From IMG/VR virus record IMGVR_UViG_3300020576_006967, positions 32,001 through 96,000 of that record: a stretch of DNA of 64,000 bases. One strand, 5' to 3'. How positions within the stretch are numbered: the stretch's first letter is position 1; each line of letters begins with the position of its first letter. Source of the DNA: a virus. Lineage: Duplodnaviria; Caudoviricetes. Position numbers and translations under genes: made by a program. A model generated the notes under the pieces. It saw only the letters and a list, made by a program, of their open reading frames with translations, was not told the DNA's origin and ran no database searches. This document shows positions 79-31,963 of this stretch, piece by piece.

Positions 79-1113
79 ATGATAAATAAAGTTTCCAAAA
101 AAGATATTAATCTCTTTGTAAGAGAATACAATTCTGGAGTTAGTATTTATAAAATAGCTAAAAATACAAAATTTACTCCAGCCACTATAAAAAAATGGAT
201 TATTATAAATGGTATTGAGCTAAGAAAAACACCGTTTGATTTTTCTAAAAATAAAACAAGAAAACCCACAAATGAAAAATTACTAATTGAACTTTATGTT
301 AAAGAAGGAAAAGAACTTTCACATGTATGTCAAAAATTAAAAATTTCCAGATCACTTGCTAAATATTATTTAGAAAAAAATAGAATAAAATTAAGAGAGA
401 AAGGTCCAAATAAAACTAAGTTTACAGATAAAGAAAAAAAAGAAATAATAAGACTTTACACAATTGAAAAAAGGGGTGCTAAATATATAGGCTCTATTTT
501 TAACAGATCAGATACTTGTATGACTTATTGGTTAAATAAGTGGGGTGTTAAAAAGAATACAAGATCAGAGATTTCTTTAAAAATCAGAAAGGTGTATGGG
601 CCAACCAAAGGATTTACTGGAAAAAGACATACTAAAAGTTCTAAAAAACAAATTTCAGAAAGTGGATTAAAAGCTTGGGATGAAAACGACAGACTTCCAA
701 TAATAGGTAAATCAAGAACTTTTAATACTAAAATTGGTAAAGTTTTAGGTTCATATGAAGTAGCATATATTCAAAAACTTACAAATGAAGGAAAAATTTT
801 ACCTAAGCCGAATAGAAAAAAAATAAAAACACCATTTGGACAATATGTTCCAGACTTTGACACGGATAAAAATTATATAGAAATAAAAAGCCCATTTACT
901 TTATCAGTGTGTAAAGGCAAAACTTCAAATGGTAAAGGTAAATTAACAGACATTCAGTGGAAAAAAATTCAATGGGTAAGAAAAAATATTAAATCAGTTA
1001 AAGTAATTGTTATAAAAAAACAAGATGCATTAAATTTATTTAAGCAAGCAATAAAAGAAGGCTTGGTTTTAGACAAAGTAGAAATTAAAAATTCACAATA
1101 TAAAATATTATAA
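79..1113 (+). CDS. Putative homing endonuclease (HTH repeats, NUMOD3-like motif, PD-(D/E)XK nuclease)
   Basis: FTGKRHTKSSKKQIS NUMOD3-like motif; YVPDF...YIEIKS catalytic motif; very basic. Confidence 0.65.
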   Translation: MINKVSKKDINLFVREYNSGVSIYKIAKNTKFTPATIKKWIIINGIELRKTPFDFSKNKTRKPTNEKLLIELYVKEGKELSHVCQKLKISRSLAKYYLEKNRIKLREKGPNKTKFTDKEKKEIIRLYTIEKRGAKYIGSIFNRSDTCMTYWLNKWGVKKNTRSEISLKIRKVYGPTKGFTGKRHTKSSKKQISESGLKAWDENDRLPIIGKSRTFNTKIGKVLGSYEVAYIQKLTNEGKILPKPNRKKIKTPFGQYVPDFDTDKNYIEIKSPFTLSVCKGKTSNGKGKLTDIQWKKIQWVRKNIKSVKVIVIKKQDALNLFKQAIKEGLVLDKVEIKNSQYKIL

Positions 1114-1115
1114 TT

Positions 1116-1712
1116 ATGGGGCTTAAGTATGTAGTAATTGATATAGAAACATCTGGAATAGATCCAGAAAACAATCAGATTCTTGAATTTGGCGCTGTTA
1201 TAGAAGATAGTGCTAATCCTTTGCCAATAGAAGAACTTCCAAAGTTTAAATGTATAGTTAGACATGACTCTTATACAGGAAGCGCATTTGCCATTAATAT
1301 GAATAAGCGTATCTTTGATATTTTGGCTAAATTTGAGGGCGCAAAGAATTATGAAGATGGTAAAAAGATTGCCGAAGAACACAATATTTTAACTCCTGGT
1401 GCAATGTGCGTAAGTTTTCTTAATTGGGTTAAAGAAAACGGAATAGATAACACAATAAATATTGCTGGGAAAAATTTTGCTGTGTTTGATAAAGTGTTTT
1501 TAGAACAATTACTCACATGGAGAGAAGATATAACATATCTTTGCGAAAGACGCTATTTGGATCCTTCTATGCTTTATGTGGACTGGAAAACAGATAAGAA
1601 ATTACCAAGCCTTGATGAATGTTTAAAAAGGGCTGGTATAAATCGACAAGTAACCCACGACGCTCTTCAAGATGCAATAGATACTTTGTTGTGTTTTAGA
1701 GCTAAATATTAG
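1116..1712 (+). CDS. DEDDh 3'-5' exonuclease
   Basis: IDIETSG, NFAVFD, THDALQDA motifs. Confidence 0.85.
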   Translation: MGLKYVVIDIETSGIDPENNQILEFGAVIEDSANPLPIEELPKFKCIVRHDSYTGSAFAINMNKRIFDILAKFEGAKNYEDGKKIAEEHNILTPGAMCVSFLNWVKENGIDNTINIAGKNFAVFDKVFLEQLLTWREDITYLCERRYLDPSMLYVDWKTDKKLPSLDECLKRAGINRQVTHDALQDAIDTLLCFRAKY

Positions 1713-1713
1713 C

Positions 1714-1739
1714 AACCTTTTAGTTAAATTTGCGTATAA
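1714..1739 (+). promoter_or_regulatory. ECF-like promoter AAC-N16-CGTATAA
   Basis: aaccttttagttaaatttgcgtataa upstream of gltX ATG 1753; one of 13 copies. Confidence 0.75.
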
Positions 1740-1752
1740 CAATAAAAAAGCT

Positions 1753-3325
1753 ATGTCAAACAATATAAAAGATGGTAAGGGGCGTGTCCGTGTGAGATAC
1801 GCCCCTTCATAATTCACCCACAGGATTTCAACATATTGGCGGTATTCGTACAGCCCTATACAACTACCTATTTGCAAAAAAGCATGGTGGCGATTTCATT
1901 CTTCGTATAGAAGATACTGATATGACTCGTTATGTTCCTGAGTCAGAACAATACATTATTGATGTTCTGGCTTGGATGGGTATAAGCCCAAATGAAGGTT
2001 ATGGTATTGGTGGAGACAAAGGCCCTTATAGACAATCAGAAAGATTGGCTCTTTACAAAGAACACGCTCTTAAATTGGTTGAGTCTGGTCACGCTTATTA
2101 TGCATTTGACACAGAAGAAGAGTTGGATGGCCTTAGAAAATCATTTGAAGGTACAAAGAAAAAATTTGCATATAATTGTTTTTCAAGAGATAGACTTAAA
2201 AATTCTTTAAGCATGTCTGAAGAAGAATTGAAAAGCGCTTTTGATTCAGGTGTGTCTTATGTAATAAGATTCAAGATGTCAAAAGGCGTTGATGTGTCTT
2301 TTAGCGATTCTGTTCGTGACAGCGTAAGTTTCAATACAAACAACTTGCAAGACGAGGTTTTGATTAAAGCCGATGGCTTCCCAGCTTATCATATTGCAAA
2401 CGTGGTCGATGATCACTTTATGGAAATCACACATGTGATTCGTGGCGTAGAGTGGTTATCAAGTACGCCTTTACATGTGCTTATATATGATGCGCTTGGT
2501 TGGGACAAACCAACGTTTTGTCATTTGCCGCTTGTTAATGGGCCAGATGGAAAAAAGTTAAGCAAGCGTGAGGTGGCCAATTACAAGTTTCCAATTTTTC
2601 CTCTTGGAGTTGATACAAAAGACGAAAATGGTGTTGATATTCACTATGAAGGTTTAAATGAGTATGGATTTGATCCACTTCCGCTTTTAAACGCTTTGTC
2701 TTTGACTGGGTGGAATCCTGGAGGAGAAAAAGAGCATTTTACAAAGGAAGAATTGGTAGATTTGTTTACTCTTGAAAGGATTAATAACGCTAGCGCCATG
2801 TTTGACATTAAAAAGGCAACTAGTTTTAATGCTGCATACATACGCTCTTTGGACAACTTGGAGTTATTCAACAATTATATTGCTCCTGAAGTTGAGTTTT
2901 TCCCTTACAAATACGATGATGAAAAAAATGTGGCTATTGCAATAGCAGCTAAAGAAAGAGCTAATTTTGGAAAAGAATTGGTTTCAAATATTATTTATTT
3001 TTTTGGGGATGTTGTTTTTACTTCTGCTTTAACTATAAAGTTCCCTGAAGAATTTTCTAGTGTTATGAACGTGTTCTTAACAAAGGATATTGAATGGAAT
3101 GAAAAAACTATTCATAATGAATTAGAGGCCACTGCGCATGGTTTGGATACTCAAATGAAGTACATTGGGCCAGACTTAAGAAAAGCTCTTACAGGTGGAA
3201 TGCCAGGTCCCACAAACGCATATATTATGTGGGTTCTTGGAAAAGAAAACTCCTTTCAAAGAATAAACGCTTTGCTTAACTTGATTAAAGAAGGTTCTTA
3301 TAATAAGAATCCTTTACTATATTAA
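1753..3325 (+). CDS. gltX: Glutamyl-tRNA synthetase, interrupted by a 7-nt insert at 1810-1816
   Basis: 1753-1809 encodes MSNNIKDGKGRVRVRYAPS; from 1817 a different frame gives PTGFQHIGGIRTALYNYLFAKKHGGDFILRIEDTD, continuous with ORF 1922..3325 (GPYRQSER, VVDDHFMEITHVIRG, KLSKR). Confidence 0.9.
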
Positions 3326-3356
3326 AAAGTTGCAGGTAATTCCTGCAACTTTTTTT
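3324..3356 (+). terminator. Intrinsic terminator after gltX
   Basis: aaaaagttgcagg-taatt-cctgcaactttttt hairpin plus T run. Confidence 0.8.
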
Positions 3357-3372
3357 AATTTTATACGTATAA
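3347..3372 (+). promoter_or_regulatory. ECF-like promoter overlapping the terminator
   Basis: aact...cgtataa with N16 spacing. Confidence 0.7.
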
Positions 3373-3400
3373 CAAATGCAAGATAATTCTTGAAATATAA

Positions 3401-3946
3401 ATGGAAAAAAATAAAAAAGAAATTCCGACAGAAACAGAAAGAAAATTTTTACTAAAAAGATTGCCAAAAGCAATTTTATCCAAACAGAAACATGACGTTC
3501 TGAATATTGTTCAGTATTATTTTAAAATTGAAGGTAAATGGCAAAGATTTCGCATTTCTCAAAATGCAAAAACTTTAAAAGTTAAGTACATACACACCAT
3601 TAAGGGCCCTCAGATTAGTTTGGGTTCATGTCTGGAAGACGAGAGAACAATTACAAAAAAAACGTTTGAAAAGATTTATTCTCAGTATAAGAGTGATGGT
3701 CTTGTAATTGAAAAAACAAGATATGTCATAAAACATAAAGGGTTTAAGTTTGAAATAGATGCCTATCATGGTATTTGTTTGGTCACTTTAGAAGTTGAAG
3801 TTCCGACCATAGAAACTCTTTATGAGTACCCAATTGATTTAAAAGATGAAATTGTGTTTGAGCTTACTGGAATAGAACAATTCAGTAACAAAAACCTAGC
3901 TTTTAAAAATAAGAATCATAAATTGTATTTTAAAATTAAAAAATAA
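3401..3946 (+). CDS. CYTH domain protein
   Basis: ETERKFL, IEKTRY, FEIDAY, LEVE motifs. Confidence 0.8.
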   Translation: MEKNKKEIPTETERKFLLKRLPKAILSKQKHDVLNIVQYYFKIEGKWQRFRISQNAKTLKVKYIHTIKGPQISLGSCLEDERTITKKTFEKIYSQYKSDGLVIEKTRYVIKHKGFKFEIDAYHGICLVTLEVEVPTIETLYEYPIDLKDEIVFELTGIEQFSNKNLAFKNKNHKLYFKIKK

Positions 3947-3948
3947 TT

Positions 3949-4377
3949 TTGTTACTTATGGAACCGATTAAAGAAGAAGATATGAATTTTTTTATTTTCA
4001 TTTCTTGTCAAGAAAAAATCACAAATCCAACAAAGGCATCAATGGCGGTAATACAAGCTATGCTTTTTTCAGAAGGAGCTATTAGTGTTGAAAAAATAAA
4101 TGAAAGCGCATTCGTTTTTTCAACAACAATGACATACGAAGCAATAAAGAAAAAGCTAAGTAGAACAAAAATAGGTTTTATAATTTTGGATATTGGCGTT
4201 TTGTATGATCTAGAACAAATATTTGGAACTGGGCCAAACATAAAATTTGAATTGTTTAAAAATATCGCCGAACAAAAATTTTCTAAAGAAAAACCAAGAC
4301 TGCAAAAAATTTCTGAAAACTCAGTTGAAAAAGAAAGATTTGAGTTGGCAGCTAAACTTAGGGATATAAAAAAATAA
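3949..4377 (+). CDS. Hypothetical protein with C-terminal UvrB/C (UVR) motif
   Basis: EKERFELAAKLRD; start may be ATG 3958. Confidence 0.55.
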   Translation: MLLMEPIKEEDMNFFIFISCQEKITNPTKASMAVIQAMLFSEGAISVEKINESAFVFSTTMTYEAIKKKLSRTKIGFIILDIGVLYDLEQIFGTGPNIKFELFKNIAEQKFSKEKPRLQKISENSVEKERFELAAKLRDIKK

Positions 4378-4380
4378 CAA

Positions 4381-4962
4381 ATGAACGTAAACAAAGAAGT
4401 AAACTCAAAAAAAATAAAAAAAGCCATTGTAGTAAATCTTATAGGTGGCCCAGGCGTTGGAAAATCTATTATAACATCAGATTTATTCTCAGCGCTTAAA
4501 AGGAAATATGTTAGTTGCGAAGTTTCGCCTGAGTATATAAAAAAGAAATTAAGAGAACAAGCTTTAAAAGCCGTTCAAAGTCAAATATATATATTTGCAA
4601 AACAACAATTTCAATTGTTTACACTAAAAGATGATGTAGAGGTTACTGTTACAGATTCTCCAATTATTCTTTCTGCCATATATGATAAGACTGAATGTAA
4701 ATTTCTTAGAGGTTTAATTTTAAAAGAATTTAAAAAATACAAAAATCTAAACTTTTATATTGAAAGAGATCCAAGTGCCGAATACGAACAAGAGGGACGA
4801 TATCAAAACTTGGATGGCGCTAAAAAAGTTGATGAAAAAATTAAAAAATTTTTAAAAAAGCATGGCATAAAGCACACGATAATTAATGGCATCGGAGAAG
4901 ACTCCTTGCAAACAGTAATTAACGAGGTAAATAAAATTTTAAAAAAGAGAAATAAAAAATGA
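4381..4962 (+). CDS. P-loop nucleotide kinase (NadR/AAA_28-like)
   Basis: NLIGGPGVGKS, PEYIK, VTDSPI, GRYQ. Confidence 0.7.
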   Translation: MNVNKEVNSKKIKKAIVVNLIGGPGVGKSIITSDLFSALKRKYVSCEVSPEYIKKKLREQALKAVQSQIYIFAKQQFQLFTLKDDVEVTVTDSPIILSAIYDKTECKFLRGLILKEFKKYKNLNFYIERDPSAEYEQEGRYQNLDGAKKVDEKIKKFLKKHGIKHTIINGIGEDSLQTVINEVNKILKKRNKK

Positions 4963-5804
4963 TAAAAGATAATTTGCTAACTTCTTGGTTAAAAGAACAA
5001 GAGGTTAAACATAGTAAAAGTTGGCTTGTAGTGCTTTTTGCACAACCAAGCGTGTATTTGTTTACATTGTTGAAGAAAACGTGTATAATTGGCTTTATAT
5101 TGCTGGTCATTTATTTAATACTTGAAAAACTTGGCATAAAAGAACAGGTGCTTCCAAATACTTTTCATAGTGTGGTTGGTGTGGTTATTGGTTTATTACT
5201 TGTGTTTAGAGTGAGTACAGCATATGATAGATGGTGGGAGGCAAGAAAGCTTTTTGCCTCATTTCATGCTGCAATACTATACTTAAAAACTATACAAATA
5301 AAATATAATAAACAGGAATCAGATTCTGCATTGTTAAAAATAAATGAAAGTTTTTTTGATTATTGCGCCTCAATAAGTGTAAAAGAAATTTCTGCATGTA
5401 AAAATGCATTTTTAAAAAACTTAAATTTGTTGGACGACTATTTCAAAGTAGATCAAAGTGCTATAAATTTAAGTATGGTTGAAAAACACAAAATAGATAT
5501 TTTGGCTATTTTTACCTCTGTAGAAAGAATTAAAGATACGCCAATTCCACAGTCATATTCTCTACATATTAAAATTTCAATCATGTCCTATATTTTAAGT
5601 TTACCTCTTGGTTTATTTCATGAGTTTGGTTATGGTTCAATACCATTTGCAATGTTTATTTATTTTGTGATTGGCGGAATTGAAGTTATTAGTAATGAAA
5701 TAGAAAACCCTTTTCAGCAAGCTCCAAATGATCTTCCTTTAAAGGATTATATGGATGAAAATAAAAAATACATACATGAACAAGGAACAACAAAAGAATC
5801 TTAG
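4959..5804 (+). CDS. Bestrophin-family ion channel
   Basis: LLVFR...AYDRWWEAR, ERIKDTPIP, EIENPF...NDLPL. Confidence 0.85.
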   Translation: MIKDNLLTSWLKEQEVKHSKSWLVVLFAQPSVYLFTLLKKTCIIGFILLVIYLILEKLGIKEQVLPNTFHSVVGVVIGLLLVFRVSTAYDRWWEARKLFASFHAAILYLKTIQIKYNKQESDSALLKINESFFDYCASISVKEISACKNAFLKNLNLLDDYFKVDQSAINLSMVEKHKIDILAIFTSVERIKDTPIPQSYSLHIKISIMSYILSLPLGLFHEFGYGSIPFAMFIYFVIGGIEVISNEIENPFQQAPNDLPLKDYMDENKKYIHEQGTTKES

Positions 5805-6321
5805 CAAATCGCTTTCTTATTGGCTACGTCATAAACCAGAAAATTTGGGAATTGTACTTGAAAAAGACGGTTGGGCAAATGTGTCTGAACTTATTGAAAA
5901 AGCTAAACAAAAAATAGAGTTTAGCTTGGAAGACTTGAAAGAGGTTGTTGCCGAAAACGACAAACAACGTTTTTCTTTTAATGAAGATTTTACAAAAATA
6001 AAAGCAAATCAGGGTCACACAGCAGAGGTGGATATAAAATTTAAAAAGATTGTCCCTCCAGTAATTCTTTATCATGGAACTGTTGATAAATTTTTTGATT
6101 CTATAAAAAAACAAGGTCTTACAAAACAAAAAAGGCATCATGTTCATTTAAGCAAAGATAAAGAAACCGCAATAAGTGTAGGTTCTAGACGTGGTAAAGC
6201 AATTGTTTTAGAAGTTGATTGTAAAAAAATGTTAGCTGATGGATTCGATTTTTTTCTTTCAGATAATGGCGTGTATCTTACAGATGAGGTTCCGTCAAAA
6301 TATATAAAAATTTCTGTATAA
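5776..6321 (+). CDS. kptA: RNA 2'-phosphotransferase Tpt1/KptA
   Basis: LSYWLRH, NDKQRF, ANQGH, LYHGT, RHHVHLS, VGSRRG. Confidence 0.9.
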   Translation: MNKEQQKNLSKSLSYWLRHKPENLGIVLEKDGWANVSELIEKAKQKIEFSLEDLKEVVAENDKQRFSFNEDFTKIKANQGHTAEVDIKFKKIVPPVILYHGTVDKFFDSIKKQGLTKQKRHHVHLSKDKETAISVGSRRGKAIVLEVDCKKMLADGFDFFLSDNGVYLTDEVPSKYIKISV

Positions 6322-31317: not shown

Positions 31318-31963
31318 TACCAACTCTCATTGTTAAATTTCTTAATACCGAGCTTCTAATTGTTCCTTCTTTTAGATTTGTTTTTCTTGCTGCTTCTGCT
31401 AGGGTGTCAAATTCAATAATTTCCCCTGTTTTTATTATTGTTCCAGTTATTTTTTTACCATTCTTATTCTTCTTTGCGTGACTTATTCTTAGGCACGTTT
31501 CTTTGCTTTTAATATGGCCTTTTAATTTTTTACTAATTTTTTTTCTTATTTCTATTGATATAACTTGTCCTTTTAATCTTTGACTGATTTTGTTTTTTGT
31601 TTCTTCAGATAAACTTTTACCAAAATTTGGATTAAGACACCCTTTTAAAACTGGTGGATTTTCACCACATGGCATAATGTTATAAAGTTTAAACCCCCAA
31701 GCTCTAAATAAATCTATATAGTGTGTTTCCCAAAAACACCACTCAGAAAAAGGTACAATATCAACAAACTCAATAATTGGGCGTTTATTAATTTTAAACA
31801 ATTTTTTAATCCAATTGTTTTTTCTATTAACAGAAGAAAATCTATCACAAACATGTTGAGTCAATCTTTTTTTCATACCAACTGATTCACGTGTGACTCC
31901 AATATATTTAACCTCATTATTTAATGGGCATGTTAAACTATATATAATTATATTTTTATTCAC
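31295..31963 (-). CDS. GIY-YIG/NUMOD3 homing endonuclease
   Basis: IIYSL...KYIG, WETHYI, FGKSLSEETKNKIS. Confidence 0.75.
   Translation of the reverse strand: MNKNIIIYSLTCPLNNEVKYIGVTRESVGMKKRLTQHVCDRFSSVNRKNNWIKKLFKINKRPIIEFVDIVPFSEWCFWETHYIDLFRAWGFKLYNIMPCGENPPVLKGCLNPNFGKSLSEETKNKISQRLKGQVISIEIRKKISKKLKGHIKSKETCLRISHAKKNKNGKKITGTIIKTGEIIEFDTLAEAARKTNLKEGTIRSSVLRNLTMRVGIKWQYVS

Follow-up and report, generated by a model that had tools for sequence, protein, structure and literature searches.

Short coding gaps behind strong hairpins in phage glutamyl-tRNA synthetase genes are candidates for programmed translational bypassing

A phage gene for glutamyl-tRNA synthetase (GluRS) is split within its conserved PSPTG motif by a stop codon and one extra base, which lie between two identical serine codons and directly behind a GC-rich hairpin. 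The gene is located in a stretch of 64,000 nucleotides (nt), hereafter the window, comprising bases 32,001-96,000 of a 188,933-bp IMG/VR phage contig (IMGVR_UViG_3300020576_006967; G+C content, 31%; estimated completeness, ~74%). Judging from the architecture of this site and of its counterparts in other phages, the element is probably a programmed short-range translational bypass ("stop-hop"). An initial annotation of the window had proposed a miniature bypass element, pointing to the matched codons, the stop next to them and the stem-loop, and this proposal is now supported by six further phage GluRS genes of the same architecture.

RESULTS

An interrupted but otherwise complete GluRS gene

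The frame opened by ATG 1753 runs through ...AGA TAC GCC CCT TCA (1807-1809) into TAA (1810-1812). After T1813, TCA (1814-1816) CCC ACA GGA takes up the protein again as SPTGFQHIGG... in the +1 frame, which continues unbroken for 503 codons to a stop at 3323-3325 (Table 1). Omitting 1810-1816, or equivalently 1807-1813, yields RYAPSPTGFQHIGG, matching intact relatives, and the joined model is 521 amino acids (aa) long with zero internal stops. Reading both frames thus bears out two statements of the initial annotation: that the motif is split as GCC CCT TCA(1807) TAA T TCA(1814) CCC ACA GGA, and that a 7-nt skip restores APSPTGFQHIG with the rest of the gene intact. Pfam matches (tRNA-synt_1c, PF00749, 2.7e-83; Anticodon_2, PF19269, 8.3e-14) and the HIGG and KLSKR motifs identify the product as a bacterial-type (class I) GluRS. 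The HIGG-bearing N-terminal part reaches a start codon only if the gap is bypassed; the product of the open reading frame (ORF) caller (467 aa) begins at 1922 (MTRYVPE...), codon 57 of the joined model, and, as had been pointed out, lacks the HIGH motif. The first segment carries an N-terminal extension compared with intact relatives (M-x-K-K-VRVR...). The take-off and landing codon, TCA, is common in this genome, where it makes up 26% of Ser codons.

The 7 extra bases are genuine and not an assembly error, since four assemblies carry the junction identically. Three assemblies other than that of the window (two SRA runs and one metagenome of the Joint Genome Institute) are 100% identical to it at the junction and 99.98-100% identical over 2.2-7.4 kb, and the same 467-aa GluRS call is found on eight contigs. 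Samples containing the phage include SRR31616091, SRR32380203 and JGI 3300033069. The phage population is clonal across assemblies, and thus there is no diversity on which selection could be tested. Exact-flank searches of viral and metagenome contigs, with records near the window excluded, found no insert-less or variant allele, and the phage collection held no DNA near-identical to the window.

All three stop codons terminate genes in the window (checked under genetic code 11), and coding density under this code is 0.85 in the window and 0.5 to 0.9 at the short relatives' loci, giving no sign of stop-codon reassignment, which was rejected as an explanation. When the whole 189-kb genome was scanned for other genes with long start-less leaders, only GluRS qualified, and two other candidates turned out to be ordinary intergenic regions.

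Table 1. Features of the GluRS region of the window and the interruptions of related phage genes
Feature	Position or source	Strand	Remark
First coding segment, 19 codons, start to take-off (MSNNIKDGKGRVRVRYAPS)	1753..1809	+	reading frame
GC-rich hairpin, 12 bp, 7-nt loop; 3' arm ends at first base of take-off codon	1777..1808	+	
Take-off codon TCA (Ser19)	1807..1809	+	
Coding gap, stop TAA plus one base T	1810..1813	+	present in four assemblies
Landing codon TCA, same as take-off codon	1814..1816	+	
Second coding segment, remaining GluRS (PTGFQHIGG... KLSKR and anticodon-binding domain), TAA stop	1817..3325	+	
Promoter-like motif TTTG, 0-2 nt, CGTATAA, 14 nt before start codon	1729..1739	+	motif count
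344-aa protein, multiple helix-turn-helix (HTH) domains, borderline restriction-endonuclease-like domain, 640 nt upstream of gap	79..1113	+	
L222: TCA, gap TGA + 6 nt, TCA	46.8-kb phage contig		in frame
L010: ACT, gap TGA A, ACT			+1
L011: ACT, gap TGA A, ACA			+1
L015: ACG, gap TAA, ACT	66.6-kb IMG/VR contig		in frame
L221: ACT, gap TGA A, GCA			+1
L223 / L224: ACT, gap TGA, GCT	74-kb contig and second assembly		in frame

A hairpin abutting the take-off codon

The hairpin in front of the gap has 12 bp, including one G.U pair, and a folding energy of -20.7 to -21.1 kcal/mol. It is the most stable of 47,224 40-nt segments on the + strand of the 188,933-bp genome, terminators included, and on the - strand one site only beats it (G000:C1 ~177,640-177,680, -22.8 kcal/mol in 40 nt). 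The GC hairpin that had been described as ending at the take-off codon is therefore real (1777-1808) and is the top + strand fold of the genome. It is composed of rare codons (GGG, CGT, GTC and GCC), and none of 5000 synonymous versions of the same peptide, drawn with the genome's own codon usage, attained its energy (mean, -6.2; minimum, -17.4). The 5' arm sits in the N-terminal extension (..GKGR..) that ordinary GluRS genes are without. The 45 nt downstream of the gap fold weakly (-2.1).

Recurrence in other phage GluRS genes

Six further phage GluRS genes, with ~50% protein identity to that of the window, are broken in the same PSPTG motif (Table 1). A hop from take-off to landing codon restores PSPTG in all seven genes, although the gaps, of 3, 4 or 9 nt, are in frame in three and +1 in four. 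The take-off codon is reached after 19 to 22 codons in each gene, and a stop (TAA or TGA) lies directly 3' of it in 7/7, a count that carries some ascertainment bias, since it was by their broken frames that these genes were recognized. Take-off and landing codons match exactly in the window, L222 (both TCA/TCA) and L010 (ACT/ACT) and differ in the wobble base only in L011 (ACT to ACA) and L015 (ACG to ACT), whereas landing requires a first-position G.U pair in L221 (ACT to GCA) and L223 (ACT to GCT). The nascent chain at take-off, 19 to 22 residues, ends in the basic stretch GRVRVR(F/Y)APS(PT); the basic VRVR is also found in every intact GluRS, and only the extension preceding it is peculiar to interrupted genes.

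Every interrupted gene has a hairpin of 11 to 16 pairs whose 3' end lies -3 to +1 nt from the take-off codon, and among the seven there are three unrelated hairpin sequences and two take-off positions. In class A (window and L222), take-off is at the Ser codon; in class B (L010, L011, L015, and L221) and class C (L223), it is at a Thr codon 6 nt further on, and the class B and C stems are displaced in step with it. The constrained Ala-Pro-Ser-Pro coding sequence supplies the C-rich 3' arm in all three classes, and the 5' arm, situated in the free N-terminal extension, has been adapted to it. Folding energies of the 48 nt up to the take-off codon range from -19.8 to -26.5 kcal/mol in the seven genes, compared to a median of ~-5.6 for the corresponding 48 nt in 48 intact loci (Mann-Whitney p = 2e-5), a single one of which folds as strongly.

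Of the 36 bases that make up hairpin, take-off codon and stop, 33 are the same in the window and L222, while the flanks are 39% and 62% identical, the proteins are ~50% identical and synonymous sites of the gene body are saturated. The T1785:A1799 pair of the window is A:T in L222, a compensatory change that turns Tyr into Phe on one side; the third difference lies in the stop codon (TAA versus TGA). This is the one compensatory pair available, for the three hairpins pair different codon positions and have no column-by-column homology. Class A and class B modules have diverged in loop synonymous sites, stop identity, gap length and one compensatory stem pair, and they keep the hop-competent layout despite this divergence. 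Judged from these sequence comparisons, the hairpin is under selection at the nucleotide level.

For three more homologues, the junction was read from the mis-called N terminus alone. Back-translation of that of P0011, MPLPESPTG, gives Ala-Pro-Ser, TGA, one base and then Ser-Pro-Thr-Gly, placing the interruption where the window has its gap. P0025 and P0062 are disrupted at the same motif, and neither fits a layout of stop plus 0 to 1 bases, so further gap types may exist. The call of P0025, on a syntenic 37-kb phage contig, begins M-SPTG... and has an empty stretch of 141 nt upstream, and P0062 begins with 13 unrelated residues before TGPLHAG. About a dozen more homologues are called from internal starts, like the gene of L015 (call P0134), and are probably interrupted too. 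A search of metagenome contigs with a generic class B hairpin pattern gave 120 unrelated matches and no new GluRS, and the class A and class C patterns gave none in IMG/VR. At L036 (IMGVR_UViG_3300035183_000733, 1470-1510), a class B hairpin and the N-terminal extension occur with no gap, so that this gene either represents the state before a gap was gained or has lost its gap exactly.

Intactness of the interrupted genes

Are the interrupted genes still functional? All seven joined frames are open over 511 to 524 aa. On a set of 94 residues that are ≥97% conserved across 147 intact relatives, interrupted genes retain 91 to 94 (92 in the window), and for the intact sequences themselves the median is 94, with 91 at the 5th percentile. 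For the gene body, comparison of interrupted L223 with L225, a closely related intact gene, gives a ratio of nonsynonymous to synonymous substitution rates (dN/dS) of 0.12 (dS, 0.36), and comparisons between interrupted genes give 0.12 to 0.20.

The closest GluRS relatives of the window's gene, P0003 (70% identity) and P0004 (67%), are uninterrupted and lie on syntenic contigs. The shared gene order is RNase T, GluRS, CYTH, AAA_28 and Tpt1, with bestrophin in L006 only.

A mobile 5' module and nearby endonucleases

Interrupted and intact genes are interspersed in a tree of 174 GluRS sequences, on which the verified cases need at least 5 state changes, or 16 when inferred cases are counted. L223 and L225 are ~94% identical from ~45 nt past the gap onward and diverged or unrelated before that point, the upstream gene included, indicating that the 5' module is a recombining cassette.

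Homing endonucleases of the GIY-YIG type (with NUMOD) are encoded directly upstream of L222, L010 and L221, and no endonuclease gene was found near L015 and L223. However, a GIY-YIG gene lies upstream of 13 of 49 intact loci as well, which weighs against a strict link between endonucleases and interruptions. These intact loci, with the homologue in the upstream 1.5 kb, are L018, L020, L024, L028-L031, L033, L035, L037, L041, L043 and L058. Intact L029, L030, L039 and L041 have unusual residues or an extra residue right after PSPT (for example, PSPTNSFMH and PSPSGAALH); L029, L030 and L041 have an endonuclease homologue, and L039 gave no match. Judged by its gene content, the 5' end of GluRS seems to be a hot spot for GIY-YIG endonucleases. 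A minus-strand GIY-YIG homologue is also present in the window (31538-31960), far from GluRS, and is 31 to 34% identical to those beside L222 and L010.

A candidate endonuclease upstream of the window's GluRS is the 344-aa protein. It matches HTH_28 and HTH_7 in Pfam, and RE_endonuc (PF19778) at 22.6 bits against a cutoff of 23.4; PHROG families annotated "HNH endonuclease" match its DNA-binding part. A tblastn search found no copy of its gene in the syntenic intact relatives L006 and L009, a PDB sequence search returned nothing, and NCBIfam gave sub-threshold HTH-type matches only. It is possibly a free-standing (homing-type) endonuclease, an assignment that is tentative because the predicted structure has a mean confidence score (pLDDT) of only 38.6.

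Genomic surroundings of GluRS

GluRS lies among genes for RNase T-like exonuclease, CYTH, AAA_28, bestrophin-like and Tpt1/KptA proteins in the window (1116-6321), L006 and L009, and the neighborhoods of relatives add RNA ligase, a KTI12/PNK-like protein, PTH2, Metallophos and DnaJ. This gene content suggests a tRNA repair or counterdefense module.

The motif TTTG-(0-2 nt)-CGTATAA upstream of GluRS has 10 sites on the + strand and 0 on the - strand, each shortly before an ATG, with ~2 expected from shuffles, and is probably a phage promoter class. Its sites are at 1729-1739, 18326 and 43333 in the window and at 697, 6654, 17658, 97373, 104389, 125079 and 143713 of G000:C1. Similar motifs precede the GluRS start in L009, L010, L011, L221, L222 and L223. 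The position at GluRS, if the motif is indeed a promoter, implies a very short mRNA leader.

A tRNA scan of the contig identified 16 genes (Phe, 3; Val, 3; Leu, 5; Arg, 1; Gln, 4), clustered at the contig start (G000:C1 932-8049 and 186524-186596). None of the 16 is a tRNA-Glu, -Ser or -Thr, and none has an odd anticodon loop, but the scan is uninformative because the contig is only ~74% complete.

DISCUSSION

How would a ribosome make an active synthetase from such a gene? We infer a hop over the stop, driven by the hairpin. Having translated 19 codons, the ribosome would halt at the UAA in its A site, with UCA 1807 in the P site paired to peptidyl-tRNA(Ser). At this point, the 12-nt C-rich 3' arm would lie inside the ribosome directly behind the P site, with its G-rich partner already outside; each base of forward slip would therefore let another G-C pair form, and the hairpin re-forming at the mRNA exit would pull the mRNA through. 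The peptidyl-tRNA would release its codon, the mRNA would slide by 7 nt, and the anticodon would re-pair at the identical UCA 1814. Decoding would restart at CCC, giving one polypeptide with the PSPTG...HIGG active-site motif unchanged and a tryptic junction peptide, YAPSPTGFQHIGGIR. Gap, hairpin and N-terminal extension together are part of a 5' module exchanged by recombination between phage GluRS genes, and the module probably originated as an insertion altering conserved DNA targeted by a nearby homing endonuclease while leaving the protein unchanged.

Several observations weigh against a programmed hop. Landing codons are not always the same as take-off codons, differing in four of the seven genes. 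The hairpin is not exclusive to gaps, since the intact gene L036 has a full class B hairpin (-23.4 kcal/mol) and the intact L024 and L042 have moderately strong ones (-16 to -18), and the hairpin may have a function of its own; the closest intact relatives carry at most a weak hairpin of 6 bp. The window has neither an A-site stem-loop within the gap nor a recognizable nascent-peptide signal, both important in T4 gene 60, and UAA-U is an efficient termination context in Escherichia coli. The 5' module is mobile, and each lineage may have acquired its interruption only recently; the dN/dS values can therefore not be taken to describe the period after insertion. Finally, the exact 7-nt insert is private to one clonal phage, whose nearest relatives (67 to 70% identity) are uninterrupted. 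The initial annotation had looked to conservation of insert and hairpin in related gltX genes: the exact insert is not conserved, and equivalent elements do exist in more distant relatives. A private insert, which that annotation itself would have counted against the idea, is thus offset by these equivalents.

The main rival to a stop-hop is a dead allele, in which a selfish cassette, whether or not it includes a homing endonuclease, spreads a disabling insertion by recombination, so that no enzyme is made and the gene body is still intact because insertions are recent. It finds support in the separate history of the 5' module and gene body (L223 versus L225), in the at least 5 state changes on the tree, in the endonuclease genes adjoining L222, L010 and L221, and in a window insert private to a clonal population without diversity for a selection test; moreover, a phage GluRS is probably dispensable. 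We nevertheless regard it as unlikely. An insertion that kills the gene has no need of a hairpin, a duplicated codon or a precisely placed stop, yet seven genes with three unrelated hairpins have all of these, and class A and B modules have kept the hop-competent layout while diverging. Secondary lesions are absent from seven frames of ~500 codons in AT-rich genomes, and conserved residues are kept as in intact genes. Much less probable is another kind of recoding, namely, a +1 frameshift or quadruplet reading in the window combined with stop readthrough in the in-frame relatives, with 2 to 4 extra residues placed within PSPTG. The two frames of the window do differ by +1, and a refolding upstream hairpin would be expected to favor forward slippage too (bioRxiv 10.1101/2024.12.09.627546). 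However, there is no +1 re-pairing at CCU UCA UAA U, neither UCA to CAU nor CCU to CUU, and a frameshift would be wrong for the three in-frame gaps. With three in-frame and four +1 gaps, neither frameshift nor readthrough gives one common product; a different event would be needed in each case, each adding its own residues to a motif that shows no variation among 147 intact relatives, and the duplicated codon would be left unexplained.

Removal of the few bases from the mRNA with rejoining of the ends, as a micro-intron and perhaps by phage RNA-repair enzymes, is about as improbable as alternative recoding, or slightly more so. RNA ligase, Tpt1/KptA, polynucleotide kinase-like, CYTH and RNase T genes do surround GluRS in this phage group, but the same repair genes flank intact GluRS genes. 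To our knowledge, gaps of 3 to 9 nt are far below any known intron size; the three hairpin classes have no cleavage structure in common, and an immediate stop with a codon repeat suits tRNA re-pairing rather than splicing. A sequencing or assembly artefact, or a minority DNA variant, is scarcely credible even for a metagenomic contig: the four assemblies with the identical junction come from different runs and pipelines, the site has no homopolymer, and analogous gaps occur at six other loci, one of them in two independent assemblies. A programmed stop-hop is, hence, the reading that we prefer.

The best-known relative of such an element is T4 gene 60, in which a 50-nt bypass occurs together with a MobA homing-endonuclease cassette (Huang 1988; Bonocora 2011; via bioRxiv 10.1101/2022.08.31.505936 and 10.1101/2024.12.09.627546). 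The insert is described as protecting the MobA target (bioRxiv 10.1101/2022.08.31.505936), and pairing of the mRNA leaving the ribosome has been proposed as the driver of forward bypass (bioRxiv 10.1101/2024.12.09.627546). The placement of the GluRS hairpin agrees with this model. As far as these accounts portray gene 60, the GluRS genes resemble it in their matched take-off and landing codons, a stop directly after take-off, a 5' stem-loop that would form as the mRNA exits, a gap placed in highly conserved coding DNA of a phage enzyme gene, and a module that moves like a cassette between diverged flanks, with endonuclease genes close to some of the loci. The differences are considerable. The gap is 50 nt there and 3 to 9 nt in GluRS, leaving no room inside for an A-site (take-off) stem-loop or a Shine-Dalgarno (SD)-like element; the stem-loop lies 9 nt upstream there, whereas the GluRS hairpin abuts the take-off codon; and the GluRS nascent chain has just 19 to 22 residues and no recognizable signal. 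The GluRS endonucleases are of the GIY-YIG/NUMOD or HTH plus restriction-endonuclease-like kinds, the probable host is Bacteroidota-like, and the gene is a different one with no sequence homology. By analogy, the MobA parallel is a reasonable but unproven account of why the gaps exist.

Shorter events offer further comparisons. In the terminase gene of the Streptomyces phage phiHau3, 10-nt bypasses with a 5' stem-loop have been proposed (PMC10732093); as in GluRS, a short gap in a phage gene has a 5' stem-loop as proposed stimulator, and bypass rather than +1 frameshifting is invoked. The trigger there is a rare UUA "hungry" codon tied to host development (PMC10732093), whereas it would be a stop in GluRS, and phiHau3 has partial experimental support, while the GluRS elements are known as sequences, with many diverged examples and three hairpin solutions. 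Low-level stop-hopping over short distances is known (bioRxiv 10.1101/2024.12.09.627546). In the unprogrammed stop-hopping of E. coli (Weiss et al. 1987; O'Connor et al. 1989; via PMC10732093 and bioRxiv 10.1101/2024.12.09.627546), as summarized there, a peptidyl-tRNA likewise skips across a stop and re-pairs with a matching codon within a few bases, so that 9 nt yield one amino acid; these are rare errors in artificial constructs lacking stimulators, unlike a natural gene with a dedicated, selected hairpin. The "byp" elements of Magnusiomyces capitatus mitochondria, in the account cited in PMC10732093, are also mobile, stop-containing coding gaps bypassed between matched codons. They measure 27 to 55 nt and are very numerous per mitochondrial genome, whereas the phage has a single gap in 189 kb and, thus, no genome-wide system of that kind.

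The +1 frameshift of prfB, which encodes release factor 2 (RF2), also has an A-site stop early in a translation factor-type gene and an upstream stimulator. It needs CUU U slippery re-pairing and an SD sequence 3 nt upstream; the GluRS of the window has no +1 re-pairing, and its relatives include in-frame gaps. No report linking bypassing with GluRS was found in the literature searched.

The initial annotation went further and held that the element controls GluRS synthesis. Nothing points to such regulation, and the element may be a tolerated insertion linked to a mobile cassette. A broader and rather speculative idea is that micro-gaps are a general and hitherto unrecognized phage element, in which a strong hairpin formed from an added N-terminal or upstream coding extension drives an efficient hop over a few bases that include a stop. 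Selfish endonuclease cassettes could then rewrite the DNA of invariant catalytic motifs while the protein stays the same, and in GluRS the hop might in addition serve as a sensor. If the sensor idea were true, synthetase output would be set by release factor activity, or by ribosome traffic that melts the hairpin, in competition with take-off.

Efficient natural bypassing so far rests largely on T4 gene 60 and a few candidates. The GluRS family, with gaps of 3 to 9 nt, provides a system pared down to a hairpin, a take-off codon, a stop and a landing codon, for which natural "mutants" are available in the form of three hairpin sequences, two positions, several gap lengths, and exact and near-cognate landings. 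It could serve to test whether pairing of the exiting mRNA drives forward sliding, how much landing mismatch the P site tolerates and whether endonucleases select for recoding. Since gene callers truncate such genes, phage aminoacyl-tRNA synthetases and other gapped enzymes would be misannotated as N-terminally truncated proteins or pseudogenes.

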